Assembly (NCBI GenBank): GCA_000165345.1
Contig: CM000431.1
Span: 544,001 to 608,000, forward strand
Length of the DNA stretch: 64,000 nucleotides
Direction of reading: 5' to 3'
Shown: positions 25,407 to 52,742 of the stretch, in pieces
Layout: each line of letters starts with the position of its first letter
How positions within the stretch are numbered: the first letter of the stretch is position 1
Program-made: the position numbers and the translations under genes
Notes under the pieces: generated by a model
The model's input: the letters and a program-made list of their open reading frames with translations, nothing else
The model's database searches: none
Told to the model about the DNA's origin: nothing

Positions 25407-28400
25407 ATGCTTAACAAAGAGGAGTACGGGCCATGCATAAATAGTACATTTAGTGAGTCGAATAGTAAGATGAATCCAAAAAATAATGAGTCAAATTTTC
25501 AAGATCAAGTCAGCTTAAAGGATTTATTTTCCCTATATGGAAAAAATCCATTTTTTTATACTCTCAAAGAAAATGCCAGAATAAATGGATTTAGGGAATG
25601 TTATTCTTGGATAGGGTCAAATGGGGACATAAAGAAGAAGTTTACTTATAGAGAATTCTTTGAAAAAGTAGTTGAATTAAGTTGGTATTTGAGCAAAAAA
25701 CTAGGAATCAAGGCAGGAGACAAAGTTATTTTGTGTTATACACCAGGATATGATTTTGTAATTGCATTTACTACATGTTTAGTTAGTGGGATTGTTGCTG
25801 TCCCTGTATATCCTCCTGATCCAATGAGAGGACAAAGCGAAATACAGAGGTTTTGTGATATAAAGCAAGCTTCAGAAACTAATATTTCCCTCACTTGTAC
25901 ATCTTATATGAGAAGTATTGAGATAGCTAAAACAATGTCTACCGACAAAAGATTTAAATCAATAAGGTTTGAAGCAACAGATAATTTGAAAATACGGAAG
26001 GAAGAATATATTAACGAAGTACAAAAGGCGATTAATGATATTATTCTTAATGATTCTAATCATTTTGATTTTTTGGGTTTTGATTTTAATATTAATACGG
26101 TAGCATTTCTGCAATTTACTTCAGGATCAACTTCCCAACCAAAAGGGGTGATGGTTACTCATGGAAATCTACTTTATAATATTCATATTTGCATCAGTAG
26201 CTACTCGTTTCCTTCAGTTTTAGAAGAACATTATAAAAATGAGCTTGACAGTATTCCTGCAGGAATTACAGTTTTGAAAAAAAACGAGCTTACAGAAGAT
26301 GAATTATCTTTCATTCATAACGAATTTGGAGAAGAAAAAAATATTATGTCATTAAATGATATTAAGTATGATAAATTGTATTTATATATGAGTATCATTA
26401 ATAAAGTCTTATATAAGAATACAATGAGTTCAGCTTCTGTTTTTAGCTGGCTTCCTGTTTATCATGATATGGGTTTAATTGGTTTTTTTTGTACTCCTTT
26501 GTTTTTTGGGTGTAACATTTTCCAAATGTCCCCAATTGACTTCATAAAAAAACCCTACCTTTGGATGCAATGCATGGATAAATACAATTGTTCTGTAAGC
26601 GGTGCTCCAAACTTTGCTTTTGAAGTCGTCGTAAGAAAAACTCCAAAGGAAATCTTAAATCAACTTAATTTAAAACATGTTTTTGCAATTTTATCTGGAG
26701 CCGAACCAATTAGAAAAACAACAATTGACAGATTTACTGAGGCCTTTAAGTCAGTGGGAATAAAGCATAATGTTATCAAGCCGGCATATGGTCTTGCAGA
26801 GCATACCTTGATTGTAGCAGGGAGCAATAGTTTTCAGCAAGAGGTAAACCATATCACTGTTAACACCAAGAAATTAAGAGAGAAGAATATTGTTGAAATA
26901 AAGGAGGCTAAAGAGAAAAGTTCTACAGAAACAACATCATTTGTTTCGAGTGGTATTGTTTACAAAGGAATTGATTTGAGAATTGTTAATCCGGAGAGTT
27001 TAAAAGAAGTAACTCCCGGAAATGTTGGCGAAATTTGGATTTCAAGTGAGTCTGTAACGCTTGGTTATTATAATAACAAGGAAGAGACAGAAAAAACGTT
27101 CAATGCAAATTTCACTATGCTAGATGGAAAAACATCGAAAAGTACTTACATGAGAACTGGGGATAGTGGTTTCATAATAAATGATATGCTTTATATTTCA
27201 GGGAGAATCAAGGATATGATAATCATTAGAGGTAGAAACTTTTATCCACAAGATATTGAGGAAGTTATTGATGGGGTCAGTGGAGTTAGACAAGGGTCAG
27301 TTGCTGTATTTTCTGTAACCCAGGCAGATGGTGAAGAGGCTATTGGTGTTGCTGTTGAAATCAGAATGGAAACGAGTATACTTGGAAGGGTAAGAAGGTT
27401 TTTTGAAAAACCTGCTTATGATAATATTGTTAGAGCAATATCGAAGGCAGTATTTATTGGGCACGGGCTACCAGTACATTACATTTGGCTTCTCTCCCCT
27501 AGAACAATATTAAAAACAAGCAGTGGAAAAATTAGAAGATCTCAAACAAGAGATGCAATTTTTTCCAAAAAACTTGTTCCATTATTCGAGTGGGTTTGTG
27601 AACAGTCTCCAATGTCTGATATTTTGGTTGAGCGATCATCACAGTTTATTAGTCCAACATCCATGATTATTTCAAAGTCTGGAGTTCAAAATAAATCAAA
27701 ATTTTATGAGAAAACACATTCAGGCCAACAAAAAATATCTGAGCAAGCTAATGATGAAAAAAATGAGTTTGATATTGATCAAGTCAAGATAAAGATCATT
27801 GAATTTGCTGCGCAAGTATTGGGAATAACACAGAAGGACCTGGATCTTAATGCGCCTCTACATGAATATGGAATAGATAGTTTAGGATCAATTCGCCTAT
27901 CTGAAATGATGAATGAAGAGTTTGGTGTAGAGCTAGACTCTACACTTTTATTCAACTATCCAACTGTAATAGAGATTGTGGACTTTGTTGCAGCACAGAT
28001 CTCTGGAAAAGAACTTCATAGAAAGAACTTGCTTAATCGCTCAGGGATTGACAGCTACTCAGATATTGTAGTTGTTGGAATGTCTTGTTCATTTCCTGGT
28101 GGGTCTTCAACTCCAGGAGAATTTTGGAGTTTGCTACAGTCAGGAGTTGATGCAATCGGAGAAATTCCAAAAAGTAGATGGAACATTGATGAGTATTATT
28201 CAACTGATTTAGATTTAGAGAACAAAATGTATACTAAAGAAGGAGGTTTTATAGAAAACATTGATCAATTTGGAGCATCATTCTTTAAAATATCCCATGC
28301 AGAAGCAAGATCTATGGACCCACAACAAAGAATATTTCTCGAAAAATCTTTTGAAGCGTTAAAGGACGTAGGATATACCATTGATACTTTAAAAAAACGA

Positions 28401-31400
28401 AATATTTCTGTGTTTGCAGGTTGTTGCAGCAATGATTGGACCCATGTTTGCAAATCAGAAGCAAATTCAAATATTGGTACATATGCTGCAACAAGTCATG
28501 CTGCATCAATAATAGCGAATAGGGTCTCATATACTCTAGGCCTGACAGGGTCTTCTGTGACAGTTGACTCTGCATGCAGTGCATCGATAGTTGCTCTTCA
28601 TGTTTCTTTACAAGAAATCTCAACTGGACAATGTGAAGCAGCTGTTGTTGGTGGTATTAATTTAATGCTTTCTCCGCAGATCACTGTTGCTCTTTGCAAA
28701 GCTAGGATGCTTTCTATGGATTGTCGATGTAAATCTTTTGATGCAGCAGCAAATGGATATGTAAGAGGAGAAGGTGTTGGAGTCCTTGTTTTAAAAACAA
28801 TGGAGAACGCAAATAATGGTGAAAAAATCTATTCAGTTATTAAAGGATCATCGGTAAACCACAATGGAAGGTCTGCAAGCTTAACAGCCCCAAATGGAAT
28901 CTCTCAGCAAAATGTAATAAATTCAGCTCTGGAATATGCAGGAATAAGACCAAATGATATTGGTTATATTGAAGCACATGGTACAGGTACATCTCTTGGA
29001 GACCCAATAGAAGTATCCGCATTAAAAAGCATATTTTCGAGAACAAGAGATTCAGGAAAACCTTTAATTATTGGTGCTGTTAAAACGAATATTGGCCACC
29101 TAGAAGGAGCTGCAGGTATGGCTGGTATTTTCAAAGTTATTCTTTCTTTAATAAATGATACTGTTCCTCCAAATCTCCACTTTAAAAACATTAACCCTCA
29201 CATCAACCTAAAAGGTTTTCCCGTAATCATTCCAACATCTAACATTGCACTGCAAACATATGACGGTTCAAAAACTTGTGCAGGAGTTTCTGCATTTGGA
29301 TTTGGTGGTACAAATGCACATGCAATTTTTGAAAAACCGAATCTAAGTATTGATTTGCCGATTAAAACGGTAAAAATAGAGACGAATAAGGCAAGAAATA
29401 ACCCTGTTCTATTTGTATTTGGTTTTCAAGGATTCCAGCATGTAAACATGGGTAAGTATTACTTTGAGAGAGAAATAGTCTACAGAGAATGGTTCTTGAA
29501 GTGTTGTAAAATAATTGATCCATTCTTAAAAATATCACTAAAATCATTAGTTTATCCTGAAACCAAGAATATGGAAAAATTAAGAGAGCTAAATAAGATC
29601 CTTGAGCAGGAAGAATATGCTCAATGTGCGCTTTTTGCAGTTCAATACTCTCTTGCAAAGCTCTTAGAGTCTAAAGGAATATATCCAGGAGCAGTAATTG
29701 GTCTTTCAGATGGAGAGTTAGTTGCATCTGTTTACTGCGGTTCTATCAACCTAGAGGATGGGCTAAAATTGTGTATGCTAAGGGCATCTTTATTGAGTGA
29801 GTTTTCAGCTGGTGAGGGGAAAATGGCACTGTTCAATGTGTCTAAAGAGGATGCCGAAATGGCTTTAGCAGACGTTGGACCACAACATAATAATAGGGTT
29901 TCAATTTTTGCATCTATTAGTTCAAATCAAGTCTTGCTTTCAGGCGATGAAGAAAAGCTTGAAACCGTAGTTTTTATATTGAAAGAATACTACCCTAGGG
30001 CCAATGCACATTCTATAGATGCAAAGTTCCTAAGAACAAAATATTCATTTGGTACCAACGGAATGAATGGCCTAATAGAGCCAATTTCTAACTTGATGGA
30101 AAATATTGCATTGGAAACTCCGATGATTCCAATGATTAGTGGAACTTCTGGTTATTTTGTTTATGAAGAATTAACAAGTCCAAAGTATTGGGGATGGCAG
30201 TTAAACAATAAATTATCTATCTCAAAGGCACTAAATACTGCTATTTTAAATGGAGCATCTACCATATTAGACTTAATGCCCATTTCCAGATCAGAATTTG
30301 AAATTTCAGAAATTTTTAATTTTGAAAATATTGATAAAGACACTATTTACTATTCACTTTTCGAAGATACAAACTTGGAAAGTTATGAACCGAATAAATT
30401 CAATAAAATGATCAAGGTGGTATCTGAAATTTTGCTTAAAAATCCATATAATGTTGAAGATGCATGTGACCAAATAATAAATAGCAATGGATCAACATAT
30501 AGCCGTGAGTCATTCCCTTGGAACTCGTTTAAACATTCAATACTTGGTGAGCAGAAATCAATTGACAGGTCAGTAAAAATTGTCTCTACCCTTAATAATA
30601 AGTCAATAAAACTATTCTCTGATCATAAAGTTTATGAAACAATTGTGATTCCGGGAGCCGGACTCATTGATTTGGCAGCAGCATCCATTATAACTGTTTC
30701 AATGGATGATGATAGTATTTTGCAAGGTTCTAATGCATTATTTGGAGAAAGTATAGCTGTAAAGCTAAACAATGTACTTTTTGAAAAACCAGTGGTGGTG
30801 AATAGAACTAGTTTATTTTCTTCTGAATGTACAGAAGTAATTAATCAACTGAAATCATACAACAATCTCGCCAACGATCAAAAAACAAATTTAATTTGTA
30901 ATATTGAGTCCGACGGAAGTATTTCTATACAGTATTGTAACATTGACAATCAAGAAGATTTTGATTATGAGGCTGATAATTCAATGATTGATTGCTTTTC
31001 TTGTAAGGCAAAAATTTCCGAGGGGGAATTTGTTCTAAGCGAAGATCTTGCCCAATTAAAGAACAATACAAATATAAAGGAAGATCCGAAAATTATGTAT
31101 GAAGAATATGAAGAAATTGGTTTGAAATATGGAAAAAAATTCAGAGTTGTGAAAGAAATTTATAGAAATGAGACATGTTCTATTGCTTTAGGAAAAATCT
31201 ATTTACCAGAAACGTGTAAATTTGGAACATTTGAATCTGGATTTTATTTCCATCCTGCAATTTTGGATGGTGCTCTCCATGTTGCAGGCTCACTATTAAA
31301 ATATAAAGATTCTTTTAAGAGTAAGCAGGCAATGGTACCAGTTAGTATTGAAGAAATTGAAATTAAATATGTCAACGCAAATCAAATGATTTGGGCAGCT

Positions 31401-34400
31401 GCATATCTTAGTGAAGCGACACAGAATTATTCCATTTTCGATTTAGTTTTGTTCGATTCAGAAGGAAGTTGTATTGGAAAATTAGAAAAAGTTTCTCTGC
31501 GTCAATTTAACAGCAAAAATATTTCGAGACCTACAGTTTCGCACAATGAAATACTTTGGATAACAGAATGGGAGAAATCAGATGTTTTAAAATTTTCAAA
31601 AAATATTTCAAAAGAGAGTGATTTTGATTTAAAAATAGCCTTAATACATTCAGGAATCTGTAATATTAGTGAAAAGGACGATATACAATTGCCCAAAGCC
31701 AATATAAGCTTCGTAAATTTAGATAAAATAAAAGAAAGTAATATTGAAGAGCTAGAAAGACTCATTGATATAACATCACTCGATTCATTAGTTTTCCTCT
31801 CACCAGTTGAACTGGCTTTGTCTGCTAAGATAGATTGTGAGAAGATTTCAATTGATATTTTGGAGTATGTAATGAAGATTTGCAAATTATACTTAAAAAT
31901 ACTAAAGCAAGCCAAACCAACTAAACAAGAACAAAAAATAAATATTCCAAATTTCTGGATCATAACAACAAATTCTCAAAATTTAATCAACTATAATATT
32001 AATGAAAATATTTGCATTCCAAATAACTCCGGATTATGGGGATTAGCTAAATCAGCAAATCTTGAAATTAGTTCTTTATTAACAAACTTTAGCCAACCAA
32101 TCAAGAGTGTGGATCTAGAAATTACAGATTTTAGTGATAATCAATATTTGAGAAAAACCATAGGAAGCTTAGTTCGATGGATAGGAAACTTTGAATATTC
32201 ATCTCTAAAAGAAAAAGAAAATCTTATTTTCAAATTTGAAAGGGAATTTAGTATTACCTCCAAAAATATATATGTAAACAGAATAAATAAATTCCATAAG
32301 CAAATTGTTGGGCCAGTTGAATTATTCATGCAAAATAGAGGTTCAATTTCTAACTTATCGTTAATAGAATCAGAGCCTATACAACTTGAAAAATTGAATG
32401 ACTATGAAGTAGTTATGAGAGTGAAATCTATTGGATTAAATTTTAGAGATGTATTAAATGTTATGGGATTGTATCCCGGTGACCCTGGACCTCCCGGCGG
32501 TGATTGTTCTGGTACTGTTGTCGCTGTTGGTGAAGGCGTTAAGCATATTAAAGTTGGTGATAATGTATTTGGAATTGCTCCTGGATGCTTAAAAACTTAT
32601 GTTACCACTGATTCAAATTTGTTATGCAAAATTCCAAAAGGATTTACCTTCGAACAAGCTGCTGCGTTACCAGTTGTTGCAACTACAGTTGAATATTCTC
32701 TTAAAGATATTGCGAATATTAAAAAAGGAGATATTGTTCTAGTTCATGCAGTTACTGGTGGCGTAGGATTAATGGTTGTTCAATATTGCAAAGCAATTGG
32801 TGCTAAAGTATACGGCACAGCTGGAAGCGAATCTAAAGTTGAATATGCACTTTCTAATGGTGTTGAGAGGGTAAGTAGCTCGAGAAATGCTGATAAATTT
32901 AAAGAGGATATGAAAGATTTAGAGGGAAAAGTTGATATTGTAATCAATTCATTGATCGAAGACTTTATTCCAAATTCTTTGAATTTATTGAAAAAAGGTG
33001 GTTGTTTTGTCGAATTGGGAAAAAGAGGAATATGGACAGAAGAAGAGATGAAAGAAAAGAGACCTGATATTAAGTACAAATGTGTTGCTGTTGATGTAAT
33101 GATGGAGGAAGATCCTTCTTGGTTTGGGGGAATGCTAACAAGAATAAAAAATTTGGCAGAAGAAGGAATAATCGAATCATTACCATTGAAGGTGTTTGAT
33201 ATGAGAGGTTCAGATGAGAATGGAATAGATGCATTCAGATATATGCAAAGAGCGCAACATATAGGAAAGGTTATTATTAAAATTCCATACTTAGCCGGTA
33301 TTGGAGATAATTCAATTCCAGAAGAATGCTTGATTACAGGTGGAAGTGGTTCTTTAGGTCTAGTTCTCACAGAGACCCTGCTTAATGAGGGTATTACAAA
33401 TATTTCTATAATTTCTAGATCAGGAATTGAATCACAATCAGATAGTATAAAAGCCAAATGGGAGAAACTATTTAAGAGAATTCTGAATAATAAAAATGGT
33501 AATAGTGGTATTAGATTCTTTAATATTGATATTGGCAACAAAGATTCAGTATATAAATTAATTAATACAGAGTTTAAAAACCTAAAGCATATATTCCATT
33601 TGGCAGGAGTACTTTCAGACTCAAACATCGAAACTCAAACTCGTGAAAGCATTGAGGAGGTATTTAAACCAAAAGCAATCGGTGCATGGAACTTACACAA
33701 CATCTGTGAAGAATTAGGGTTAAACAAAGAATTAAAGACATTTGTTATGTATTCTTCGATTGCATCAGGTTTAGGTAACTTTGGTCAAACAAACTACTCT
33801 GCAGCAAATTCTTGTTTAGATTCATTATCACAATATAGAGTAAGCAAAGGACTTAGCAGCAGAAGTATTCAATGGGGAGCTTGGGATGAGGATGGAATGG
33901 CTATGAATATAAGACAGCATTTGGGATTGGTAGGAATGAGCCCTATCTCCAAAACTACTGGGCAACAGGTAATATTTGATTTAATTACAACACAAATTTA
34001 CGAGGAAAATAGAAAGTCTGCGACAATAATGTGCCTTCCAATTAAATGGAAGACTTATATTAATACAATATATTCTGGAGAAAACATACCCCAGTTCTCA
34101 CTGGTAAATACGAATTTAAGAACTAAAAGGCAGCAAAATACAATATTATTGAAAATGAGTAAAGAAGAACGTGAAACATATATCGAGAAACAGATTATTT
34201 CTCTTTCAAAATCTATTCTTGGTGTTGAAATTAAATCACTGGACCAACCATTACAAGACATTGGAATCGATTCGCTTGCAGCACTTGAATTCAGAAACGC
34301 ATTATCAAAGAAATTTAACATTAAACTGTCAGCAACAACATTATTCGATTATCCTACAATTAGAGGAATTAAGGATCATATATCCGAGAAGCTTTCTGTC

Positions 34401-37400
34401 AAAGAGAGCATATACGAAACTAACAAGACTCAAATCTCGAACTTGATTCTTTCCCAAGACAATTTATCAGATGACAATGTTGGAGTTATTGCGGGATTAG
34501 CCTGCAGATTCCCTGGCGGATGCAATACTCCAGATACGCTCTGGAAATCTCTTATTAGAGGTTATTCGATAAATCCATTGTCTGGCAAAATGTTTAACTC
34601 AGTAGGCGGTGCCTTTTGTGCATCTAGAGAAATTCCAATTCAGAGGTGGAATCATAATTTAGTTTATAATGCAGATCCAGATAAAACGGGTAAATGCTAC
34701 TCTTACAAAGCATGTTTTATTGATTCAATAGACATGTTTGATAATTCCAAGTTTGGAATTACGAATATTGAGGCAAAACATATGGATCCTCAGCAAAGAA
34801 TTGTGCTAGAAACATGCTATGAGGCTCTAGTAGCCGCAAAAATTAAAGAAGAAACTCTAATTGGATTTCAAATGGGTGTATTTATTGGTTGTTGTTCAAA
34901 TGATTGGTCATTTTTACAAAGTAGAAAGGGAATGGCACCATTTACAGGGACTGGGGCTGCAAACACTACAATTTCAAACAGAGTTTCATACGTTTTTGGT
35001 ATGAGGGGTCCAAGCATGACAGTAGATACGGCATGTGCATCATCTCTCACTGCAGCATGCATTGCAATGGACAGTTTTAGAAACAAAGAGTGTAATGGAG
35101 CTATAGTTGGCGGAGTAAATGCTTTATTATCCCCGAACCTCTTCATTGCATTCTGCAAGGCTAGAATGCTTTCAGTAGATGGTAAATGCAAAACATTTGA
35201 CGCTTCAGCTGATGGTTATGTTAGAGGAGAAGGATGTGGCGCAATTGTAATTTTAAAGCAAAGTGAACAAAAGAAGCAAAATACTCCTATATTAGGAAGA
35301 ATAAAAGGTTGGGGATGCAATCATGTAGGGAGAAGCGCAAGCTTAACTGCTCCAAATGGTCCTGCACAAACATGCGTCATTAAAATGGCACTTAATCAAT
35401 CAAAATTAAACAGTTCAGATATTGATTACATTGAAACACATGGAACAGGAACAGCATTAGGAGACCCAATTGAGCTAGGTGCATTAAAAAGTGTTTTTGG
35501 AAGAAATGCAGATTATAAAAGATCAACTCCTTTAGTATTAGGAGCATTAAAAAGTAACATTGGGCACTTGGAGGGCGCAGCAGGTATTGCAGGATTAATT
35601 AAGCTGGTCTTAGTTTTAAAACACGAGACTGCAATTAGAATTGCCCATTTGACTAAAATTAATCCTCATTTAGATTTAGAAGACTTTAATGTCATTATAC
35701 CACAAAAAACCGTTTCATTAAAGTGTAATAAAAACAAACTTATTGGTGGGGTCAGTGGATTTGGATTTGGAGGATGTAATACTCACGTAATAGTGGAATC
35801 AACAGAAAAAAACAAATCTGAGGATATAGAGGCAGCTGATTTCTCGAAAAATCATATTTTGTTCGTATTTACAGGGCAAGGCTCACAGTATATCAATATG
35901 TGTAAGGGTATTTATGAAACTGAACCTATATTTAGAGAAAATATGAATTTATGTAATGAAATCGTTTCTAAAATTCTAAATATATCTCTTCTTGATATAA
36001 TCTATCCAATTGATGGTAATAAAGACGCTGAATTTAAAGCTATGAACATGCTAAATGATACTCGTTATGCTCAGCCAGCAATCTTTGCCGTTGAATATTC
36101 CCTAGCACAATTATGGATTTCTAAAGGTATAAAACCAGATTCAGTACTAGGACATAGCCTTGGAGAGTTTATTGCTGCGACTATTAGTCAAGTAATGACA
36201 ATTGAAGATGCATTAACTCTGGTCACACACAGAGCAAGTATCATGGCATCTACACCTGCTCTAGATGGAATCATGGTAGCCTGTAGACTCACTGAATCTC
36301 AAGTTGTTGATACAATTAAAAGATTCGGCCTCGAAGAATCTGCCTCTCTGGCAGCTGTTAATGGACAGAAAAGTGTCACTATATCTGGGAAAAAAGAGTC
36401 GGTATATAAGATTTTGGAGTATAATAATGTTGGTAGTAGATTCAGACGGCTAGATGTTTCTCATGCATTCCACTCTCCACTGGTCAGTGAAGCATCTGAC
36501 AAATTTAGCAAATTATTGGAAAACATCGAACTAAAAAAACCAACTGTTGAATTTATCTCAACCGTTACTGGAAAAAAAGAAATTGAATCAATATCGACTG
36601 CTAAATATTGGTCAAAACATATATTGAACACTGTTCGACTTTCGGATGCAGTTTATCACGCTATTGAATCTGTAAACTCAAGAATGACATTTATTGAGAT
36701 TACATCAAAGCCTATTCTTTCACAATTATTAAAAGCCCTAATACCTGTAAATAGTAGCCACATTTCAGTTAAATGCACATGCAAGCTGGTAAATTCTGAA
36801 ATTGACTTTATTCAACCTTTAGAGGAAATGCAAGAATTCGGTTCAGAAAATTCAAGTTTTACAAATCATGCTAATAACTTAGATGATGATTCTTGGAGGT
36901 TCAAACTCCTGAAACGAAGGCAAATTTCATGGAGTGATATTAGCCATCCAATAATTGCTCCTCTACATGACTTTAATGATATCGAATGGGTCAAGGAAAA
37001 TATATCCATAAGTAAGTCAAATGCAAGAGAACTTGTCGAAAAATTAGAATTTACCTGTATGATTTCACCAGAATTACTTGATTTGTTTGACAACCACAAA
37101 GTATTGGGACAGTCAATCCTCCCAGGAGCTGCCTTTGTCGATTTTATGGCAACAGTAGCATTGAATTATACAAAGTCGCAATTTACTTTAGGAGTAATTG
37201 GAGCAATGCCAGACTGGATTCAATTAAAGGGAATCTTCTTTAGAAACCCATTTATAATGTCTTCTGCAAAACAATACAAATATTTAAATACACAATTTGA
37301 TAGTCAAGACTATTCTGATGAAGATAATTCAAGCCGTAGTTCAGACTTTAATATTATTATGTCAAAAGGTAACAATTGCCAAATAAGCATTGAGTCTTCA

Positions 37401-40400
37401 TTGAAAATGGACGAAGAAACCGTTGTATATGCAACATGTGATGAAGTAGAATACGTATCAAGTATTGAGGCACAAACAAAAAGTTTGTGTATAATTTCTG
37501 AATGGCCAAGCAGTGAACTTATTTCAAACTCAAAAAAAGTTTCCCAAGAAGATATCTATGAAAAAATGTCAATTGCAGGTCTTCAATATGGTAGCAGGTT
37601 CAAAACTCTGAAAGAAATGTGGAAAGTTACTTCAAACTCCGCAGTAGGGATAATTCAAAGCGAGCTATTTACTAAAAATTGTGCAGAATCACCAGATAAT
37701 CTTGCAGTTTATGAATCAATAATGAATGAAAGAGGCTTTACAATACATCCGACTCTTTTGGATGGCGTATTGCATATGTGCGCATCTATACTTGGCGATC
37801 AATCAGATAAGGAGACATTTAATGAATTACACAAGCGAGCCACAATGGTACCAATAAGTATAAATAAATGCCTTATCACTTCTAAAATTGACACTTCAAA
37901 GTATATCAAGGGAGAAAAATATTGGGCTTTTGTTCAGCTCAAAAGTTCGGATAAGGACAGCGCAATAGTAAATGTTGCACTGAAAAGTATGAGTGGAGTT
38001 CCAATAGCAGTGCTTCTCGGAGTTTCACTTCGCTCTGTTAAAAACGGAGTGATTTCTACTCATACTATTAAACATGTAATTCCAAATGAGCTGTTATGGA
38101 GAATTGACTGGGATGAAGTTATTGAAAGCATTACTAATTCTGAAATAGTGTCGCTTCCAACCAAAGTCAATTGCGATAACACAGAAAATGAGTCCTATCA
38201 AGGGATAAACGCAAATCTGGTTGAAAAAAGAAAAGTTTTATTACTTACTAACTCTTGCAATATTAGTAAAAAAGAATTGTATTCCGAATATTTTACTGCT
38301 GATATTGTATGTGAAGCATCAAAACTATCTTTAGCTGAAATAGAGGCAACAATATATGGGAGAGATGATCAAGAATTGCCACCTTCTCCATCAAATGAAG
38401 CAAAGTATGACTTAATTTGTCTCCATATTCCCAATTCAGATAAGAATAAAGCTATTGTTTCATTATTGCCAGTATTATATCTTTGCAAAATTCTAAGATC
38501 AATGTTCGAAAATAAGGAAAGATTAATTCCACGTGTTAGAATAATTACTGAAAACATATTCAATGTAGATGGAATGAATCTTGAATTTAGAACAAATTCA
38601 GGTGTTGCTCCTTTCATTAAGAGCGCTAGACAAGAACTCGAGTTATTCTCTGATCAATCTGTTTCATTAGGATTAATTGATATAGAGACTGCAGAAGACT
38701 TAAATAAAGCTATAATTCTTTCATTTGTGAAAGATATACTTTGTTTCAAAAAAAGAGAAGATATTACTTCTAACGGCACACTTACAGAATCGCAACGTTT
38801 ATTTTTAAATACCGAATATGAGCCAGAGCTTGTGCTAAAAAAGAAAATTAAAGGTAAAGAAGATAACTGTGAAGCTCATTACAGAATAATTACTCCAAAA
38901 CTAGTCAGCTTAAGAGGCGAAGCAGCGATTATTGGTTCTTGTAAGTTAAATTTGAGTTCTCGCGGAGCGATAAATAATTTAGAGTTGTTACCTTTATCTA
39001 ATGAAGAAAGAAAATGTCCATCTGCAAATACTGTTGAAATTAGAGTAAGGTCAATCGGACTTAACTTTAGAGACGTATTAAATGTTATGGGATTGTATCC
39101 CGGTGACCCTGGACCTCCCGGCGGTGATTGTTCTGGTACTGTTGTCGCTGTTGGTGAAGGCGTTAAGCATATTAAAGTTGGTGATAATGTATTTGGAATT
39201 GCTCCTGGATGCTTAAAAACTTATGTTACCACTGATTCAAATTTGTTATGCAAAATTCCAAAAGGATTTACCTTCGAACAAGCTGCTGCGTTACCAGTTG
39301 TTGCAACTACAGTTGAATATTCTCTTAAAGATATTGCGAATATTAAAAAAGGAGATATTGTTCTAGTTCATGCAGTTACTGGTGGCGTAGGATTAATGGT
39401 TGTTCAATATTGCAAAGCAATTGGTGCTAAAGTATACGGCACAGCTGGAAGCGAATCTAAAGTTGAATATGCACTTTCTAATGGTGTTGAGAGGGTAAGT
39501 AGCTCAAGAAATGCTGATAAATTTAAAGAGGATATGAAAGATTTAGAGGGAAAAGTTGATATTGTAATCAATTCATTGATCGAAGACTTTATTCCAAATT
39601 CTTTGAATTTATTGAAAAAAGGTGGTTGTTTTGTCGAATTGGGAAAAAGAGGAATATGGACAGAAGAAGAGATGAAAGAAAAGAGACCTGATATTAAGTA
39701 CAAATGTGTTGCTGTTGATGTAATGATGGAGGAAGATCCTTCTTGGTTTGGGGGAATGCTAACAAGAATAAAAAATTTGGTAGAAGAAGGAATAATCGAA
39801 TCATTACCATTGAAGGTGTTTGATATGAGAGGTTCAGATGAGAATGGAATAGATGCATTCAGATATATGCAAAGAGCGCAACATATAGGAAAGGTTATCA
39901 TCAAAATTCCAACTCCTTTCAAATATTTAGAATTGGATACGGAAAATCATAAGTTAAACAACGTTGGTTCTGAAAAAGAAGATAGACACAACAATGAATA
40001 TGGCATTCATGTGATTACTGGAGGATTAGGAGGAATTGGAAGGATTATTATCAAGTGGATGTTAGAAGAAGGAGTTAGAAAGATTGCAATTTTATCAAGA
40101 AGCGCTAATAATGATTCTTTAAGAGATATCCCAGAAATAAAGGATTATTTGAATACAGATATTATTCAAATAGAATGCATAAAATGTGATGTTTCGATAT
40201 TGTCACAGGTAGAGAGTGCATTTAGGGAGATTTTAGTTAAATTTGGAGAAACGAACCAAATACATGGAATATTCCATGCTGCAGGTATTCTGATGGATGG
40301 AGCAATTGCTTCTCAAACAATGGAAATGATGGAGTCAGTATATGCACCCAAGGTATATGGAGCATGGAATCTACATGAGTGTTGTGAGAAGTTTGACTTG

Positions 40401-43400
40401 AATAAAAATTTGAAGCACTTCGTGATGTTTTCTTCAGTTGCATCATTACTGGGTAATTTTGGTCAAACAAACTACTCTGCAGCGAATTCTTGTTTAGATT
40501 CATTGGTTGAATATAGAAGAAATAAAGGAATGTGCGGAACTAGTATACAATGGGGTCCCTGGATTGAACAAGGAATGGCAATGAATATAAAACAACATTT
40601 AGAGAAGGTTGGAATGCATGGAATATCCAATGAAATGGGTATAAGAGTGATTAATGACGTGATCTTATATCAAAACACAGATTTAGATAAGAACTCATTA
40701 GGGAAATACCCAGTAATCACTTGCCAATCATTTAATTGGAATGTATATATGCGTCAATTATATTATAACTCAAAATATCCATCATTCTTCAAAGATGTGG
40801 TTGCATCAATGTCTACTGGAGAAGTAAAGAATATAGGAATGGATTTCAGGGGAATGAGTAAAGAGGAAGTGTACTCGTATGTTAAAGACTCAGTGCATAA
40901 TATAGTAGAACAGATTATTGGAATACAATCGTCAACTCTTGACTTGGACACGCCATTTTCAGAACTTGGGATGGATTCTTTGTCGGCAATTGAGTTGAGG
41001 AATGCATTAATTTCAAGATTTGGAATTAAGATATCTTCGACAGCATTGTTTGATTACCCAACATTGAGATCAATTATTCAGCATTTGACAGACTCTTTAT
41101 ATGTTTCAGAAACCCGAGACGCATTTTCTGACCTAGGAATGAGTATCTCAGAAAGAGAGTATTCAGTCGCAATAATTGGTGTTTCTTGTAGGCTTCCCGG
41201 TAGAGTAAAGTCATTTAACGATCTTTATGAAATTGTTTTGCTTAAAAGTAAGGATTGCATTACGGAAATTCCATTAGATAGATGGCCATTTGATTTATAT
41301 TATGACCCAGATCCAGATAATAGAAGCAAGTCATATGTAAACCAAGGTGCATTCATAACTGACATTGATCTATTTGATAATACTTTCTTTGGTCTTTCAT
41401 CAACTGAGGCTACAAATGTTGACCCTCAACAAAAATATATGCTTGAGGTAGCATATGAAGCAATGTATAATTCTGGAATTACAAAACGTTCGCTAACTAG
41501 CATCAAAAAAACAGCAAAAACAGGTGATGATCCTGTATTAATGGGAGTTTTTATTGGCTGTTGCAATACGGATTGGCACTTCCTTCAAGCAAAGTTTGGC
41601 TTTGAAAACTTCACTTCTTATACTGGTTCTGGCGGTGCAAGCTCTCTTGTTTCTAATAGAGTATCATATTCGTTTGGATTTAGGGGGCCTTCGCAGACCA
41701 TAGACACTGCATGCTCTTCGTCTCTTGTTGCGATGGATGCAGCTCTAAAGTCGTTGAAAGAAGGCTCTTGTCATACTGCATTAGTTGGAGGCGTAAACTT
41801 AATGCTAAGCCCGCATTTATTTGTAGCATTTTGCCGTGCAAGAATGCTTTCTCCTGATTGTAGATGTAAAACATTTGACGCCTCTGCAAATGGATATGTT
41901 AGAGGAGAGGGATGCGGCGCAATTTTATTAACTAAGAGATCAGAAATAGGTGGAAAAAAAATTAGGCCAATTGCATATGTGTTGGGATCTGCAACAAATC
42001 ATAATGGGAGATCTGCAAGCCTCACAGCTCCAAATGGTCCCTCACAAACAGAAGTTATTCAAAATGCCCTAAGAAATGCTAGATTAACTCCTAATGATAT
42101 TGATTACCTAGAATCTCATGGAACAGGAACTCCTCTTGGAGATCCTATAGAGTTTGGTGCGTTAAAGACGGTTTTTGGAAACAAAAAGGATATTAAGAGA
42201 AGTCAACCTCTTATTCTTGGAGCTCTGAAAACGAATATTGGTCATCTTGAGGGCGCAGCAGGTGTTTCAGGACTACTAAAGTTAATCTTGGTGTTGAAAA
42301 ATCGTATTGCACCAAAAATATTGCATTTCCAAAAACTTAATCCTCATATTGATACTGAGAACTTCGACGTTGAATTCCCAACTGAGTTAAAACCTATTAT
42401 TTCTAATAAATCAAAATTAGTTGGTGGTGTGAGCTCATTTGGGTTTGGAGGATGTAATTCCCATGTAATTTTGGAATCTGCCTCTGCCAACGAATTGAAT
42501 ACTGAAAGTAGCCAAAATAAAAACTATCCATATTTGATATTTGCGTATACTGGCCAAGGATGCCAATATATTAATATGTGCAAGCAACTGTATGATACGG
42601 AAGAAGTTTTTAGAAATGAAATGGATAAATGCAATGAACTTTTATATCCAATATTGGGGAGATCATTAATTTCAACAATATATTGTGAAAAAACTATGGA
42701 GAGTGAGAAGTTGATAAATCATACATCAATTTCTCAACCAGCAATATTTTCAATTGAATATTCATTAACTAAACTGTGGGAATCAAAGGGTATAGTTCCA
42801 TCTGCAGTAATGGGTCATAGCCTTGGAGAATTTGCAGCAGCAGTTACTAGTGGGATCTTATGCCTCAAAGATGCCATCACTCTAGTTGCAAGGAGAGCAG
42901 AAATTATGGCGTCTCTTCCTCAGAATGATGGAATAATGGTTGCTTGCAGGGTTTCAGAAGATCAAGTATTAGATTCTATTAATAAATTGAACTTAAAAGA
43001 TTCTGCAGCAGTTGCTGCAATAAATGGTCCAAAGAGCGTAACGATATCAGGAAGCAGGAGTTCAGTAATGCAGGTCCTGAATAATTTGGGTATGGAAGAC
43101 AGATATAAACAACTTGATGTTTCTCATGCATTCCATTCTCCTTTGGTTAGCTCTGCTGAAGAAAAGTTTGAAAAAGTAATAGAAAATATTCAATTTTTCG
43201 AGCCAAAATTAACATTCTTTTCTTCTGTAACGGGTAATATTGAATCTAAATTGTTAATAGAAAATAAATATTGGGCACAACATATTATACATTCTGTTAG
43301 ATATTATGATGCACTTGAGACTGCAATTTCCACAGATGAAGAAAACATAGCAATTATCGAAATTGGACCTAAGTCTGTTCTTACCTCGATGGGCAAACAA

Positions 43401-46400
43401 GCAGTAGGAGGCATTCAATTAGTACAAAGCTCAAATGAAAATATTTCAAATAATGAATTGACATGGATTCCAACAATTGATAATTCAAAATCAAATACAA
43501 TTGATTTCAATGATGCGCTAAAAGCTGCTCGGGAATATATAAAATATATTTCAGAAAGCGTTTGTGTTCATAAATGGAACCACTCTAGGTTCCATTGGGC
43601 AGATTTGACATCTGTCCACCCCTTATTGGGAAAGTTTTATTCATCAATTTCAGATGAAAATTATCTTGCTTATTCCACTGATATGCTAAAATCTAAAGTA
43701 TTTAAAAACATTGTAGAAGATCATGTTATTTTTGATACAAATATTATTCCCGCAGCAGCATTGATTGAGGCATCTGCATGCGCAGCATTTAAATTACAAA
43801 GGTCTGAAAAGTTCCCATCTAAATACGTCGAAATGGATTCAATGGATATTGAAAAGCCATTAGTATCAAATCAAGATGAAACTACATCTGAAATGGAAGT
43901 CTTTGTTGCAAAAAGTGGAGCAATTCAAATAAGGAAAAAATGCATTTCCGAAGCATTTGAATATGAAGAAGAATTTTCTGGACCACAAATAATTGCCAAT
44001 GATACAGTATTTAGTAATAGTAGAATTTACCATCATGCATCTATTTCAAACTCTAGAATACTTAGCAAGGATGAAGTAGATAAACAATGTTTCCCAAATT
44101 TAGTGGATTATTTAGAAAAGTATTCATCAAAAGATACAATGGAAGTCCCCATTGACAATATTTACAAAATGATGAATGAAATTGGTCTACAATATCAAAA
44201 AAATTATCAATGCCTTAAAACTGTAAAAGTAAAAATTGATAATAGCAACGATGAAAAAAAAATAAAGAGTTCAGGAAGCAATCAGATAAATGAGGTATTC
44301 TGCTATGTTAAGAGGCCAATAAGTGATTTTGACCTAACTGAGCTTAGGATTCACCCTGGAATGCTTGATTCAGTATTTCAAGCATCCTCAGTTTTGTTTG
44401 CCTCTGATGAGTTATTAGAGGGCAAAGATACGACAAAAAATAAGAGAGGACATGTTGCAATGGCTCCAATTGGATTCACTAAGTGTTTTTATGGAAGAAT
44501 ACAACATAATTCTGATGTTTGGGGTCTAGTGAAATTAAATCGATTTGAAAAAAAAGGAAATATAGCATTTATTGATGTAACTTTGTGGGATAGCAAAACA
44601 AATATTTTGGCAGCGCATTTCCAAGATTTAATTTTAAAAGGATTTTCGAACGCAGCATCGTTACTGTCCCAAGAAGTCAGAATTCCAAACCAGTTTTTGT
44701 GGAGAACTTATAATAAAAAGATAGTAGATAGAACTAATTATATTGAAAATAGCAGTACATTTGAACAAGAAAATAAAGAAGATCAAGATAAAGAGTTCAA
44801 CAGTGAAGACTCCGATCATGATAACCAAATCCAAAAGATTCTTATCTTTGGAATACCAACTGTAATTAAGGAATTGATTTGTAGTAAAATGGACAATAAA
44901 TACAAAAAGATTTCAACCACATTTATTTGTTTAGAAGAAGATCTAACGATTGACCTGATTGATCAGAAAATACAAGAAGAAAACTGGTCTGCTATGTTTT
45001 ATTTAGGTGGTTTAATGGATAATCTCTCAAGTAAGCAAGTTATGGGCGATATTTTAAAAATATCGCAGGTAATTTCAACTATTTCTGTATCTATTACAAC
45101 CGCACCATTTGTTTGTTTAACTTCATTTAATGATTGCAAAGAAGATGGGAACATTCCTAGACATTCAGGAATTAAAGGTTTTGTGAAAACAGCTAGAGTT
45201 GAACTTGAAAATGTCATAGGAAAATCAATAAACATTTCTCATATTGAGTGCAATTCGAGTTTGGTAAACGATCCAGAAACTCTTATGAGGACAATAAGTT
45301 ACATAGCCTCAATATATGAAGGAAAGATTGAAGAGGAAATTACTTTGGAAAGAGATTTAACTATATCTGAAAGTGGAATTTATGCCCCCAGATTAGAAAG
45401 TATTAATTTCCCTGTTTTTGGTGCAATTAAATTAACAATGTCATCTAGGGGAGCAATTGGAAACCTTAAATTCAAGCCACAACCACAATCTGAAAGAGTA
45501 AATCCACCTGCAAATACTGTTGAAATTAGAGTAAGGTCAATCGGACTTAACTTTAGAGACGTATTAAATGTTATGGGATTGTATCCCGGTGACCCTGGAC
45601 CTCCCGGCGGTGATTGTTCTGGTACTGTTGTCGCTGTTGGTGAAGGCGTTAAGCATATTAAAGTTGGTGATAATGTATTTGGAATTGCTCCTGGATGCTT
45701 AAAAACTTATGTTATCACTGATTCAAATTTGTTATGCAAAATTCCAAAAGGATTTACCTTCGAACAAGCTGCTGCGTTACCAGTTGTTGCAACTACAGTT
45801 GAATATTCTCTTAGAGATATTGCGAATATTAAAAAAGGAGATATTGTTCTAGTTCATGCAGTTACTGGTGGCGTAGGATTAATGGTTGTTCAATATTGCA
45901 AAGCAATTGGTGCTAAAGTATACGGCACAGCTGGAAGCGAATCTAAAGTTGAATATGCACTTTCTAATGGTGTTGAGAGGGTAAGCAGCTCAAGAAATGC
46001 TGATAAATTTAAAGAGGACATGAAAGATTTAGAGGGAAAAGTTGATATTGTAATCAATTCATTGATCGAAGACTTTATTCCAAATTCTTTGAATTTATTG
46101 AAAAAAGGTGGTTGTTTTGTTGAATTAGGAAAAAGAGGAATATGGACAGAAGAAGAGATGAAAGAAAAGAGACCTGATATTAAGTATAAATGTGTTGCTG
46201 TTGATGTAATGATGGAGGAAGATCCTTCTTGGTTTGGAGGAATGCTAACAAGAATAAAAAATTTGGTAGAAGAAGGAATAATCGAGTCATTACCATTGAA
46301 GGTGTATGATATGAGAGGTTCAGATGAGAATGGAATAGATGCATTCAGATATATGCAAAGAGCGCAACATATAGGAAAGGTTATCATCAAAATTCCAACT

Positions 46401-49400
46401 CCTTTCAAATATTTAGAATTGGATACGGAAAATCATAAGTTAAACAACGTTGGTTCTGAAAAAGAAGATAGACACAACAATGAATATGGCATTCATGTGA
46501 TTACTGGAGGATTAGGAGGAATTGGAAGGATTATTATCAAGTGGATGTTAGAAGAAGGAGTTAGAAAGATTGCAATTTTATCAAGAAGTGCTAATAATGA
46601 TTCTTTAAGAGATATCCCAGAAATAAAGGATTATTTGAATACAGATATTATTCAAATAGAATGCATAAAATGTGATGTTTCGATATTGTCACAGGTAGAG
46701 AGTGCATTTAGGGAGATTTTAGTTAAATTTGGAGAAACGAACCAAATACATGGAATATTCCATGCTGCAGGTATTCTGATGGATGGAGCAATTGCTTCTC
46801 AAACAATGGAAATGATGGAGTCAGTATATGCACCCAAGGTATATGGAGCATGGAATCTACATGAGTGTTGTGAAAAGTTTGAATTGAATAAAAATTTGAA
46901 GCACTTCGTGATGTTTTCTTCAGTTGCATCATTACTGGGTAATTTTGGTCAAACAAACTACTCTGCAGCGAATTCTTGTTTAGATTCATTGGTTGAATAT
47001 AGAAGAAATAAAGGAATGTGCGGAACTAGTATACAATGGGGTCCCTGGATTGAACAAGGAATGGCAGCAAATCTTAAACAACATTTAGAGAAGGTTGGAA
47101 TGTATGGCATATCCAATGAATTGGGTATTCGTGTTTTGAACGACATTCTATGCTTTGTATCAAAAAGTAGCTCTGTTATTGGTTGTCAGTCACTGAAATG
47201 GGATACGTTTATGCGCCGTTACAATACGATACCAACATTTTTAAGTGAAGTCGATTACAGTTCTCAGGGTAGATCACAAGGTCGTGTTGACATAAGCAAG
47301 CTGTCTGACGAGGAATTGGTTGTTGTCATTGCTCAAGTTGCTCAACAGTGTGCTAGTTCTCCGACATTACCAAGCCCAGATACTGTTTTGTTAGATTTAG
47401 GATTGGATTCATTGGGAGCTGTTGAATTCAGGAATTCAGTACTTGAAATGACAGGAGTTAAATTGCCGCAGACACTTGTTTTTGAAAACCCTACAATATA
47501 TGCAATTTCTATGTATGTAAGGGATCAAAATTCAGGAAACTCTACAAAATCAGATTCTAAAAAACATTCCCAGACTTCAAACGAACAAGCAAAGATGACA
47601 ATTGAGCAGTGGCTTCTATCTTCACTCAAACAGTCAGAAAGGTATATTTTATATGCTGAAGCTTTTGAAAAAAAATACCAAACAATCAGTAATTTAATTA
47701 CTGAGACTGATATTATTAGTGCATTAGAAGAGTTGGGAGTTGAAAATAATCAGGATTATGATCTATTATATGTTTCTTGGAATGAATTAATTTCTTCTGA
47801 AGAGGAAAATAGTAAGAAGCAAAATGATAGCAATAGCAAAAAACTTGAACAGGAGTTAATATTCGATCCTATTGCGGATGTAGAAGAGATCAAAAATTCC
47901 ATGAAATTAGATTTGGATGGGATATCAACAACAACTGACCCATCAGAGTTCAAAACCGCACTTTTGACAGGTGTAACAGGATTTGTTGGTAGAATATTGC
48001 TCGTGAAACTAATTGAAGAGTTTAAGAATATGCAGATTGTTTGTCTTGTAAGAGCAAGCAGCTCTGAAAAAGGCTTAGAAAGAATAATTAATGTTTGTGA
48101 AGAGGCAGAAGTGTGGAATCCAACCTATGCTTCTAGGATTATTGTCGAATGTGGAAACTTCGAAGAGGAGTATTTAGGACTTTCAGAAGAGAGATATTAT
48201 GAATTATGTAAAGAAATCGACGTTGTTTATCATATTGGAGGTGATGTTAATCTATTAAGTAATTACAAGAGATTAAGAAAAACAAACACTCTTTCACTTG
48301 TTGGTATAATAAATTTTTGTACAACTATCAAGCTTAAGCACTTGCATTTCTCTTCTACACTTGGACAGTTTCCAGCATTTTTTGCGGTATTTACCAGGGA
48401 GTTTGAAAATGCAGTTGTTAAGGAAACAGAAGGGCCATCTACGAGAGAAATGAGCAGATTGTTTCCTCCTACAAGACAAGGGTATCCTTGGAGTAAGTGG
48501 GCAGCTGAACAAATATTAGAAACTGCTCATCAACAAGGACTTCCACTTTCAATTTACAGACTGCCAAATACATATATTGCATCAGATACAGGTTATACAA
48601 ACAAAACTGATTATGCAACAGCTTTATTGATCGCTTCAATTTTGGAGGGTATGTTCCCTATTGGTTCATCAACTGCGCCATTGACACCTGTTAATACAAT
48701 ATGTGAAATAATAATATCTGCATCTAAAAAGAAAGAAAGGAAGCATTGGAGATATAACTTATTAGACACAAGAATTTTAGGAAAAAAACATGTTGAAGCT
48801 TGGGCATCTCAATTAGGGCTAGGAAATTATAAAGGCGTTGCTATTGATGAATTCTTCAGTGCAATTAAAAGTAGAGGGCCAGAAAGCCCAATTTTCAAAT
48901 TTGTACCATTAATGCAATACTGGAGGCACTATTGGTTTGATAATACTGAAAGAACTCAACCTTTTCCAGTAGATACATCGAATGTTTCTGAAGATATGCC
49001 TGAAATTTCATGGCCACCGTTGGAGATTACTTTTCAAAACTCATTTTTATACTGCGCAAAAAGAGGTTATTTCCCATCAAACTCTTCTTCAATTTCCTTC
49101 ACTCCAATTAAATGTTACAGCGATGCTTTAAATGAAATTAAAGCAGAATTAAGTTTAAGAAATGTTAATTTCAACCAGAATAAGTATGATTTTATTTGCA
49201 GAAAAATGCAAAAAAATGCAGACTCGATTTACGATTCATTAAAAAAAGTTTCGCTCAATTTCTGTGCTAAATATTCTTACTACATACTTCTGAAGCAATC
49301 TATAGTAAATCAATATATTGTTCAAGAGTCCCTCAATGATTCAATTTTAGAAAAGTTTAAAATGATGGATTGCTACTTTATTACGGGAACATCGTTTGAG

Positions 49401-50184: not shown

Positions 50185-51339
50185 TTATTCAAAAGTTTCA
50201 TTTGAAAATAATAATGACGCAGCTAATTCAGTATTTCCATTTGTAGCTCTTAATGCATTAATTACCTGGCTTTCAGAAAACCCTAGTGATAAAAGTTGAA
50301 GTTTTTTCCCCTGTTCAAAGCATTGATCATATTCATTATTTGAATTTATTTGACTAATTTCACTATTTATTTCGGATTCAGATAAGAATTGTACCTTTTC
50401 ATCTCCAATAATTAGTGCATTTTGATGCAAGTCAATACAACATTGATACCTTTTAAGTAAATCCAATCCAAATAGGAAATCCACATGACTTTCTTCAAGT
50501 ACTGTTATTGAGAATGGAAAGAAGGAATTTCCAATTTTCATTTGAGCAACGTGTATTTTACCAACAATTTTACTTGTGCCCACACCTTGTGCAATTCCAC
50601 TAAACCTATAGTCTATTAACCTCACGAGGTTGCACTTTTCTGCACATTTTTTAGACATAATTGTTGTTTGCGCACCACTATCAACAAACGCTTTAATTGA
50701 GATTCCATTAACTTCTGCATTTATATATAGCATGTGAACTTGCGTAAAACTTTCTGGTAAATGGTCTTGCGCCAAAATTAAATTTTCTTCAACATTTTGT
50801 TTTCTTACTTGCTCTTCAATTAACCTTTGATATTCTGGGCTTAAAGGGTCCAAATTATACAAATTTGAGCTTGAATTTGAACTAGAAGAAATAGAGTTCA
50901 GATTTCCGGAAAAGTAGTCATTTTTTATTAGTTCTGTAAAACTTTTAATATCATCTTTATCAATTGAATCTCTATATTTACTTGATTTTGAGTAGTATAC
51001 TGATTTTAATGATTGATCTTCTTTAATTTTTGTGAAAAGCTCTTTTGAAAGCAATTGAATCAGATTTTCACGGTCATTCAAAGAAAAATTAGAATTTTCA
51101 AAGGTATTTTTATTGGTTTTTTCTGATAATACAAATATTGAGCCTTCATTTACAATATCAGATAATACGAATCCATCATTTTTCAAAATTTTACCTTCAA
51201 TTGAGAGCTCGTAATTCTTAAAACTATCTAAGTTAAGTTCAATTTCAATAAGCGATTTTAAAACCTCAACAGTAGTTTCTTCATGGATTTCAACTGAGAT
51301 GAGCTCTCCTGTTACGCTATAGAAAATATTCACTTTCAT
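50185..51339 (-). CDS. DDI1: DNA-damage-inducible protein 1 (Ddi1): UBL, retropepsin-like aspartyl protease and UBA domains
   Basis: An N-terminal ubiquitin-like fold is followed by the aspartyl-protease active site FVDSGAQTTIMS and the flap GVGTSKIVGKIH. A C-terminal UBA-like helix bundle follows (QVINALRATNGNTELAASLLF). Confidence 0.85.
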   Translation of the reverse strand: MKVNIFYSVTGELISVEIHEETTVEVLKSLIEIELNLDSFKNYELSIEGKILKNDGFVLSDIVNEGSIFVLSEKTNKNTFENSNFSLNDRENLIQLLSKELFTKIKEDQSLKSVYYSKSSKYRDSIDKDDIKSFTELIKNDYFSGNLNSISSSSNSSSNLYNLDPLSPEYQRLIEEQVRKQNVEENLILAQDHLPESFTQVHMLYINAEVNGISIKAFVDSGAQTTIMSKKCAEKCNLVRLIDYRFSGIAQGVGTSKIVGKIHVAQMKIGNSFFPFSITVLEESHVDFLFGLDLLKRYQCCIDLHQNALIIGDEKVQFLSESEINSEISQINSNNEYDQCFEQGKKLQLLSLGFSESQVINALRATNGNTELAASLLFSNETFE

Positions 51340-51362
51340 TTTATTTATTTACAAATCTTCGA

Positions 51363-52660: not shown

Positions 52661-52742
<82 letters not shown>

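Follow-up and report, generated by a model that had tools for sequence, protein, structure and literature searches.

The DNA analysed here, referred to below as the window, is a stretch of 64 kb from chromosome 3 of Cryptosporidium parvum IOWA-ATCC, and the subject of this report is the giant fatty acid synthase (FAS) gene CpFAS1 that lies within it (locus name cgd3_2180). An open frame at positions 25383–50138 of the plus strand comprises 8251 codons, and its first ATG, at position 25407, gives a product of 8243 aa; the reading frame is unbroken across these 8243 codons and is intronless over ~25 kb. A product of 8243 aa is also annotated for CpFAS1 in three C. parvum assemblies. The Pfam matches revealed an acyl-ligase (AMP-ligase)-ACP loading unit, three modules of the order KS-AT-DH-ER-KR-ACP and a C-terminal NAD_binding_4 reductase, which is the domain order of CpFAS1 and the architecture given for the C. 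parvum protein (PMC2995488). The location is likewise that of CpFAS1, with genes for proteasome alpha1 (QOY42567.1) and a DDI1-like protein (QOY42569.1) on either side (CPATCC_001215 and CPATCC_001217). The downstream 21 kb of the window are, base for base, those of CP044420.1 in GCA_015245375.1, the PacBio/Illumina hybrid assembly (CpIA) of C. parvum IOWA-ATCC (PMC8744675).

Self-BLASTN of the region from 25 to 51 kb was used to find repeats between the modules. Positions 39006–40642 matched 45492–47128 without gaps at 98.4% identity (26 mismatches in 1637 nt), and positions 32415–33287 matched both 39039–39911 (98.4%, 14 mismatches in 873 nt) and 45525–46397 (97.3%, 24 in 873). All of the remaining inter-module matches had 65–76% nucleotide identity, and a search for a further copy of the cassette across the 64-kb window found none. 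The repeats are direct and in frame, with offsets of 6624 and 6486 nt (32415/39039/45525) that are both multiples of 3. The features considered are the following:

25407..50138, plus strand: CpFAS1, 8243 codons and a stop, from the list of open reading frames and the Pfam domain order.
32415..32450, plus strand: recoded zone 5' of the ER1 tract, encoding nearly the same peptide as ER2 and ER3 in other codons.
32451..33287, plus strand: ER1 homogenised tract, 837 nt, the third copy, ER only, with 4 differences from ER2 and 14 from ER3.
33288..33940, plus strand: ER-KR linker and KR1, a non-homogenised internal control, 72–73% identical in nucleotides and 50% in amino acids to KR2 and KR3.
39022..40580, plus strand: ER2-KR2 homogenised tract, 1559 nt, with the ER core at 39075–39911 and the KR part at 39912–40580.
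40581..40642, plus strand: variable 3' edge of the copy 2/3 tract, paralogous to 47067–47128, with 8 mismatches in 62 nt in the window.
40643..45491, plus strand: unique ACP2-KS3-AT3-DH3 segment, a control, 65–68% identical in nucleotides to the other modules where alignable.
45508..47066, plus strand: ER3-KR3 homogenised tract, 1559 nt, with the ER core at 45561–46397.

A preliminary description of this DNA had put the ER-KR cassettes of modules 2 and 3 at about 99% identity over 1.56 kb and had taken the ER of module 1 for a third copy, and both statements were borne out. Most of the 26 mismatches between modules 2 and 3 sit at the two ends of the match; the core, 39022–40580 versus 45508–47066, has 13 mismatches in 1559 nt (99.2%), nine of which are synonymous and four conservative replacements (T/I, K/R, F/Y and D/E), in a comparison that spans ~328 synonymous sites. 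A fifth replacement listed earlier, A/V, does not separate copies 2 and 3 and belongs to the comparison of ER1 with ER2 and ER3, at position 33157. The ER core common to all three modules measures 837 nt (32451–33287, 39075–39911 and 45561–46397), and since ER2 and ER3 differ within it at 10 positions, ER1 is nearer to ER2 than ER2 is to ER3. The other domains, described before as 50–60% identical in amino acids, proved to be lower and more varied (23–58%), with values between modules of 49–58% for KS, 30–53% for AT, 23–28% for DH, 39–43% for ACP and 50% for KR1 versus KR2 and KR3.

The tract boundaries are sharp (32451/33287 and 39022/40580), and the flanks are 65–76% identical between modules, as expected of conversion and not of unequal crossing-over. 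Identity of copy 1 begins, as had been noticed, at GTATTAAATG (32451) and is preceded by synonymously recoded codons: in the 12 codons 5' of the ER1 tract, 10 of the 36 nt differ from copies 2 and 3, amounting to 7 synonymous changes and 2 replacements (M/I and K/R). These codons keep nearly the same peptide without the nucleotide identity, so that protein conservation does not explain the identity downstream of them. At the ER/KR junction the ER1 tract stops, with similarity breaking off sharply at 33288; the Pfam ER match of module 1 (ADH_N to ADH_zinc_N_2) extends from about 32400 to 33278. The 5' limit of the tract in copies 2 and 3 lies no more than a codon away from the Pfam ADH_N (ER) start at 39024, and the 3' limit 15 nt past the end of the Pfam KR match (40565), directly after the peptide GPWIEQGMA, which agrees with the earlier reading. 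The 3' limit of identity between these copies lies between 40397 and 40581 in the window, whereas copy 2 carries copy-3 bases through 40589 in C. parvum GCA_048859185.1 and through 40610 in C. meleagridis; hence this boundary moves between isolates and species. Position 33275, where ER1 has T and ER2 and ER3 have C, is kept in C. parvum, C. hominis and C. meleagridis, and this conserved copy-specific difference indicates that the 3' limit of the ER1 exchange is stable at about 33274 in the three species.

Orthologues in other Cryptosporidium species were reached via the two neighbouring genes, with 10 kb of each gene end read per assembly. Both ER2 and KR2 were covered from end to end in C. 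parvum, C. hominis and C. tyzzeri alone; in most of the other species the stretches fetched stop short of ER2 in the middle of the gene. Within the 837-nt ER core, copies of one species differed at 1–15 sites in C. parvum, at 1–13 in C. hominis and, for ER1 versus ER3 in one C. meleagridis assembly, at 5. Between species, every pairing of copies gave 25–30 differences for C. parvum versus C. hominis and 72–77 for either of them versus C. meleagridis. Paralogues within a species are therefore closer than orthologues between species, and this was found for the ER core, for the 3' part of KR, in C. muris and in C. tyzzeri. When derived sites were polarised with C. meleagridis, 8 substitutions in the ER core proved to have arisen in C. 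parvum and 7 in C. hominis, each being carried by all three copies of its species; 55 sites set C. meleagridis apart from both other species in every copy, and 29 vary between copies within a species. The 3' part of KR (40200–40580) behaved in the same manner, as each hominis- or meleagridis-specific change found in one of copies 2 and 3 recurs in the other within a single assembly. In C. tyzzeri, copy 2 has 4 species-specific changes in common with as much of the start of copy 3 as could be read. The preliminary description had named independently diverging orthologous copies as the outcome that would speak against concerted evolution; instead, the copies co-evolve within each species examined.

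The closest pair of copies is not the same in the two nearest species. In C. parvum ER1 and ER2 agree (AAG-type) and carry derived bases absent from ER3, for example at 32704, 33017 and 33077, while in C. hominis ER2 and ER3 agree versus ER1 (ATT-type), which suggests that the latest exchanges were separate and took place after the split of these very close species. At the other end of the sampling, ER1 and ER3 of C. muris RN66, the most distant lineage, are 99.55% identical over 898 nt, with flanks that are only 65% (KS) and 69% (KR) identical and an ER protein only 72% identical to that of C. parvum. The C. muris loci were without the middle 6.8 kb, that gene being longer, and the downstream locus stops short of KR2. 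The near-identity of ER1 and ER3 in C. muris, together with the findings in the other species, argues that ER homogenisation is genus-wide and renewed in each lineage. The flanking sequence is collinear with the orthologues at 94–98% identity, the ACP2-KS3-AT3-DH3 segment is position-orthologous in all species, and the full-length annotated products, of 8243 aa in C. parvum and 8466 aa in C. muris, both have three modules. A protein database search with the ER-KR2 segment returned no Cryptosporidium FAS; the best match was 48% identical and none was longer than ~1170 aa, from which giant proteins appear to be absent from that database.

The annotation of C. meleagridis GCA_039657295.1 splits FAS1 into several products, at 11201–15130 and 15368–21155 on one fetched locus and at 11646–19296 and 19014–20820 on the other, with breaks in ER1 and ER3. 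Its ER cores were searched for in-frame stops and none was found, with 6–9 gap openings relative to the window; the split is likely due to indel errors in the assembly, although it may represent a genuine disruption.

Synonymous divergence (dS) between C. parvum and C. hominis was 0.12–0.13 in the tracts versus 0.064–0.077 in unique FAS sequence including KR1 and 0.060 in nine neighbour genes pooled; between C. parvum and C. meleagridis the corresponding values were 0.34–0.47, 0.18–0.23 and 0.191. KR1 (33288..33940), with 0.077 (C. hominis) and 0.218 (C. meleagridis), equals unique sequence, and the ACP2-KS3-AT3-DH3 segment gave 0.067 and 0.182. Tract dS was hence ~2–2.4 times the local background in three species comparisons, and Fisher tests of the excess gave p = 0.002–0.006 for C. 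hominis and 1e-7 to 1e-12 for C. meleagridis. Copy 2 of C. tyzzeri showed a total divergence of 3.1% versus 1.5% in unique sequence (p = 1e-4). Nonsynonymous divergence (dN) was the same in tracts and in unique sequence. The substitutions behind the excess occur all along the tract and include more transitions, with a higher transition/transversion ratio.

According to neutral theory, a converting gene family should have the substitution rate of single-copy DNA, with an offset in its divergence equal to the ancestral divergence between paralogues. Present-day paralogue divergence at synonymous sites is at most about 0.055, which could account for the excess seen with C. hominis and C. tyzzeri but not for the excess of 0.26 versus C. 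meleagridis. A tentative explanation, which we consider possible though not the likelier outcome, is that the tracts are local mutation hot spots with a neutral rate roughly doubled where conversion acts. Either repair synthesis or heteroduplex repair during copying between modules would be mutagenic, or the G-rich, skewed coding strand would be both break-prone and mutation-prone. Alternatively, the history may have been episodic, with ancestral copies further apart than today's and a different donor prevailing in each lineage, or the dS excess may stem from an ectopic donor such as the ER and KR domains of CpPKS1 (cgd4_2900). If the hot-spot explanation is true, CpFAS1 would be a clean natural measure of conversion-associated mutagenesis, with converted ER and KR beside an unconverted KR1 in a haploid, obligately sexual eukaryote; the doubled synonymous rate relative to KR1 makes the idea testable in a tractable parasite that can now be crossed.

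In C. parvum, C. hominis and C. meleagridis the species, and not the module position, decides which copies cluster together; the same is partly true of C. tyzzeri and holds for ER1 and ER3 of C. muris, and the copying between modules would have run separately in every Cryptosporidium species examined. The tracts are very probably kept alike by recurrent non-reciprocal homologous recombination, namely gene conversion between modules, in which the coding DNA of one module's ER, or of its ER and KR, would be copied over the paralogue. This supports the concerted evolution of the reductive cassette proposed in the preliminary description, as evidenced by the grouping of ER copies by species and by the species-specific changes present in all copies; in addition, synonymous sites are homogenised within a genome, and adjacent codons for the same peptide are recoded. 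Gene conversion is preferred over unequal crossing-over because the order of the three modules is kept and the flanks are divergent and position-orthologous. The events would thus be conversions, by non-crossover repair or short double exchanges, rather than loss and gain of modules. Such a process would be self-limiting, as pairing would occur only between DNA that is still near-identical, and this would keep the boundaries near the ER start and the KR end; at present the boundaries are probably stabilised by the flanks, whose divergence would restrict pairing. Exchange of ER and KR would be tolerated and should be neutral, since every module performs the same full reduction, and the KR of module 1 would have left the exchange.

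Differences among C. parvum assemblies may bear on whether the process continues. Over 21 kb, GCA_031892065.1 and the window disagree at 7 positions, all of which are copy-3 variant sites that have the copy-2 base in that assembly, arranged in two blocks (45715–46019 and 46589–46883) around an unaltered middle block. The FAS part of GCA_048859185.1 has 9 differences, and 8 of these are switches at copy-variant sites. Altogether, 7 and 3 of the 13 variant sites of the ER3-KR3 tract carry the copy-2 base in these two other C. parvum assemblies, and at 45814, 46589 and 46883 it is the derived copy-2 base, as judged by the outgroups C. hominis and C. meleagridis, that is found in copy 3. Judging from these assemblies, the switched sites may be conversion tracts that still segregate.

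Several points weigh against gene conversion as the explanation, or limit its reach. The conversion event would be reconstructed from its products and is not directly observed. KR2 and KR3 were compared in non-gastric species, the evidence from C. muris of the gastric clade being that of ER1 and ER3, and for C. felis and C. bovis the evidence consists of contig end points. The switched sites in C. parvum would be equally expected from mis-mapped short reads when 99%-identical repeats are polished. Lastly, the tracts show no signature of GC-biased conversion: third-position GC content was 0.24 in the tracts versus 0.245 in the gene, there was no asymmetry between W and S bases, and with neither an excess nor an asymmetry GC-biased gene conversion was rejected.

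One of the other explanations is compatible with gene conversion and takes the tracts for GRINS, elements of skewed composition that promote conversion in assembly-line polyketide synthase (PKS) genes. These are defined by a length of >500 bp, >80% DNA identity within a synthase and a mean absolute GC and TA skew >0.15, and have been reported in some eukaryotes (Nivina et al., 2021; PMC8256042). We measured skew in 150-nt windows with a 30-nt step and applied the threshold of 0.15. The tracts resemble GRINS as long intragenic repeats tied to conversion, with lengths of 837–1559 nt and identities of 98–99.5%, and they share the strong GC skew, their mean |GC skew| being 0.34–0.37 versus 0.146 in the non-repeat part of the gene and 0.148 in the unconverted KR1. 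However, mean |TA skew| was only 0.10–0.12, the same as in the rest of the gene (0.109), and membership was ruled out on this ground. Third-position GC skew was 0.21–0.24 in the tracts versus 0.11 gene-wide, on only about 60–130 G+C sites, too few to be telling, and the skew would mostly be a matter of amino-acid composition; moreover, the GC and TA skews were anticorrelated and not positively correlated. A further difference from GRINS is the genome of C. parvum, which is AT-rich (33% GC) and not GC-rich. On balance, a GRINS origin of the tracts appears improbable.

Homogenisation by unequal crossing-over, through cycles of module deletion and duplication, is favoured by the arrangement of the repeats, as direct in-frame copies would permit translatable alleles with two or four modules. 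It is nevertheless very unlikely: KS-AT-DH and ACP, which lie between the repeats, would be homogenised or vanish, yet they remain 23–58% identical and position-orthologous, the full-length annotated products of C. parvum and C. muris have three modules, and the tracts are short (0.84–1.56 kb). No two- or four-module allele was seen in the assemblies read, which represent few genomes and give full-length products for C. parvum and C. muris. If the repeats recombined by crossover or single-strand annealing, the frame would be preserved and the resulting FAS would have one module more or less, with products two carbons longer or shorter.

A single recent duplication or cassette replacement in C. 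parvum, now decaying with no ongoing process, would also look like a 99%-identical pair in one genome. We give it hardly any weight, as the tracts are near-identical inside C. hominis, C. meleagridis, C. tyzzeri and C. muris, yet differ by up to 9% between species (28% in protein for C. muris), lineage-specific substitutions are found in all copies, and nested tracts have different partners in sister species.

Collapse, duplication or cross-polishing of sequence could in principle have produced the near-identity or the third copy as an assembly artefact, and several assemblies are visibly damaged in this region, which upholds the warning in the preliminary description about short-read assembly. 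Across five species, many contigs built from short or Sanger reads stop, have a gap or are collapsed where the tracts begin or end. Logan short-read contigs of C. parvum break off at 32474, 47037 and 47073, and C. hominis contigs at 32500, 32740, 32891, about 40155, 47037 and 47044; a C. felis contig stops at the equivalent of 47073 and one of C. bovis at the equivalent of 47061. In C. hominis UdeA01, 100 Ns replace 45683–46894, and in C. hominis GCA_045269125.1 a 1-nt deletion lies in ER3 and the FAS product is annotated at 8195 aa. In C. tyzzeri UGA55 (GCA_007210665.1) positions 45713–47131 are gone, a loss of 1419 nt in frame with a single-N join and a product annotated at 7770 aa; most of ER3-KR3 is affected, and the join looks as if scaffolding had bridged a collapsed repeat, although a true domain deletion may be the cause. 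Polishing error could also underlie the switching of variant sites between C. parvum assemblies. Against an artefact stand the intact frame of 8243 codons, independent assemblies of five species with the same architecture and species-specific sequence in every copy, and copy-specific variants conserved in three species, such as T/C at 33275. The window is also identical over 21 kb to the PacBio/Illumina hybrid assembly (PMC8744675), from which it follows that the repeats are not a collapse artefact. We attach next to no credence to this explanation.

Each ER copy contains a stop-free antisense frame of 172 codons (39404–39922, minus strand, and the equivalents in ER1 and ER3). The frame is kept in C. 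hominis and C. meleagridis and measures 73 codons in C. muris, and control frames reach 115 codons. An embedded antisense gene was rejected on these two grounds, the lack of conservation in C. muris and the length of the controls, and the frame is probably due to chance. Purifying selection, whether its target is the protein, codon usage or an embedded nucleotide-level element such as an RNA or antisense gene, which the activity of ER and KR as enzymes (earlier assays summarised in PMC2995488) and this antisense stretch might seem to favour, can be dismissed almost outright: synonymous sites are alike between copies but diverge between species twice as fast as elsewhere, the 12-codon stretch 5' of the ER1 tract preserves the peptide but is recoded, KR1 has the same function and is only 50% identical, and the antisense frame is lost in C. 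muris.

Bacterial modular PKS are known to undergo gene conversion from module to module (PMC8256042, PMC1592344, PMC4256081). A full-text search of the literature found no mention of intragenic repeats or module conversion in CpFAS1, although the original CpFAS1 papers of 2000 and 2004 could hold an earlier one. Module-to-module conversion itself is therefore known, and its occurrence in CpFAS1 is a new, well-supported example. As in the bacterial systems, near-identical segments of 0.5–1.5 kb lie in homologous domains of different modules with divergent flanks, the copies are closer within a cluster than between orthologous clusters, and ER and KR are among the domains affected. Unlike them, CpFAS1 resides in a eukaryotic parasite, and as a fully reducing fatty-acyl elongase its product chemistry is left unchanged by conversion, which in PKS is thought to diversify products; furthermore, the same tracts are maintained across a whole genus and not in one cluster.

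The mycolactone PKS of Mycobacterium ulcerans has same-function domains that are about 97–100% identical across modules, attributed to recent recombination or duplication. It shares with CpFAS1 the extreme nucleotide identity of same-function domains in a modular synthase, but there nearly all domain types are homogenised in a young, plasmid-borne system, whereas in CpFAS1 only ER and the KR of two modules are affected and the state is old. Concerted evolution of the ribosomal DNA type is comparable in that paralogues group by species and new mutations reach all copies; in contrast to such repeats, the units in CpFAS1 are parts of one reading frame, number two or three copies and have boundaries at the limits of protein domains.

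For the engineering of modular enzymes, CpFAS1 can be read as a long-lived natural experiment in which a whole ER, or an ER together with the catalytic KR, is swappable between modules without loss of function. The swap junctions are defined (the ER start, the ER end, and the KR end at GPWIEQGMA), and KS, AT, DH, ACP and the region before ER stay outside the exchange. The finding also matters for Cryptosporidium assemblies and selection scans, and it leaves one quantitative puzzle in the doubled dS. Short-read genomes mis-assemble FAS1 systematically, cross-talk between paralogues may account for variant calls made within the tracts, and primers or typing markers placed in ER or KR would match two or three sites. 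The gene has been flagged as being under selection, with dN/dS values of 0.92 (PMC6532270) and 2.08 (PMC7371110). In the chipmunk-genotype and C. bovis assemblies the two genes flanking FAS1 lie on separate contigs, and the C. bovis contig stops at the tract edge. Because of these breaks and the paralogy of the modules, the published dN/dS values may be artefacts of mis-paired or truncated sequence.

Outside the FAS gene, C. parvum GCA_048859185.1 has an indel of ~18 nt near 52699 (intergenic, 52321–52968), deduced from a shift of 18–19 nt in its annotation relative to IOWA-ATCC, and Logan contig SRR18691161 has single-nucleotide polymorphisms at 50653–51265 and an indel from 51395. The differences near 52699 and at 50653–51395 are ordinary isolate variation. 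The proteasome alpha1 gene upstream (23762–24581, plus strand) contains a single 61-nt GT-AG intron at 24058–24118, and prokaryote-style gene calls on Logan contigs break it into products of 99 and 116 aa.

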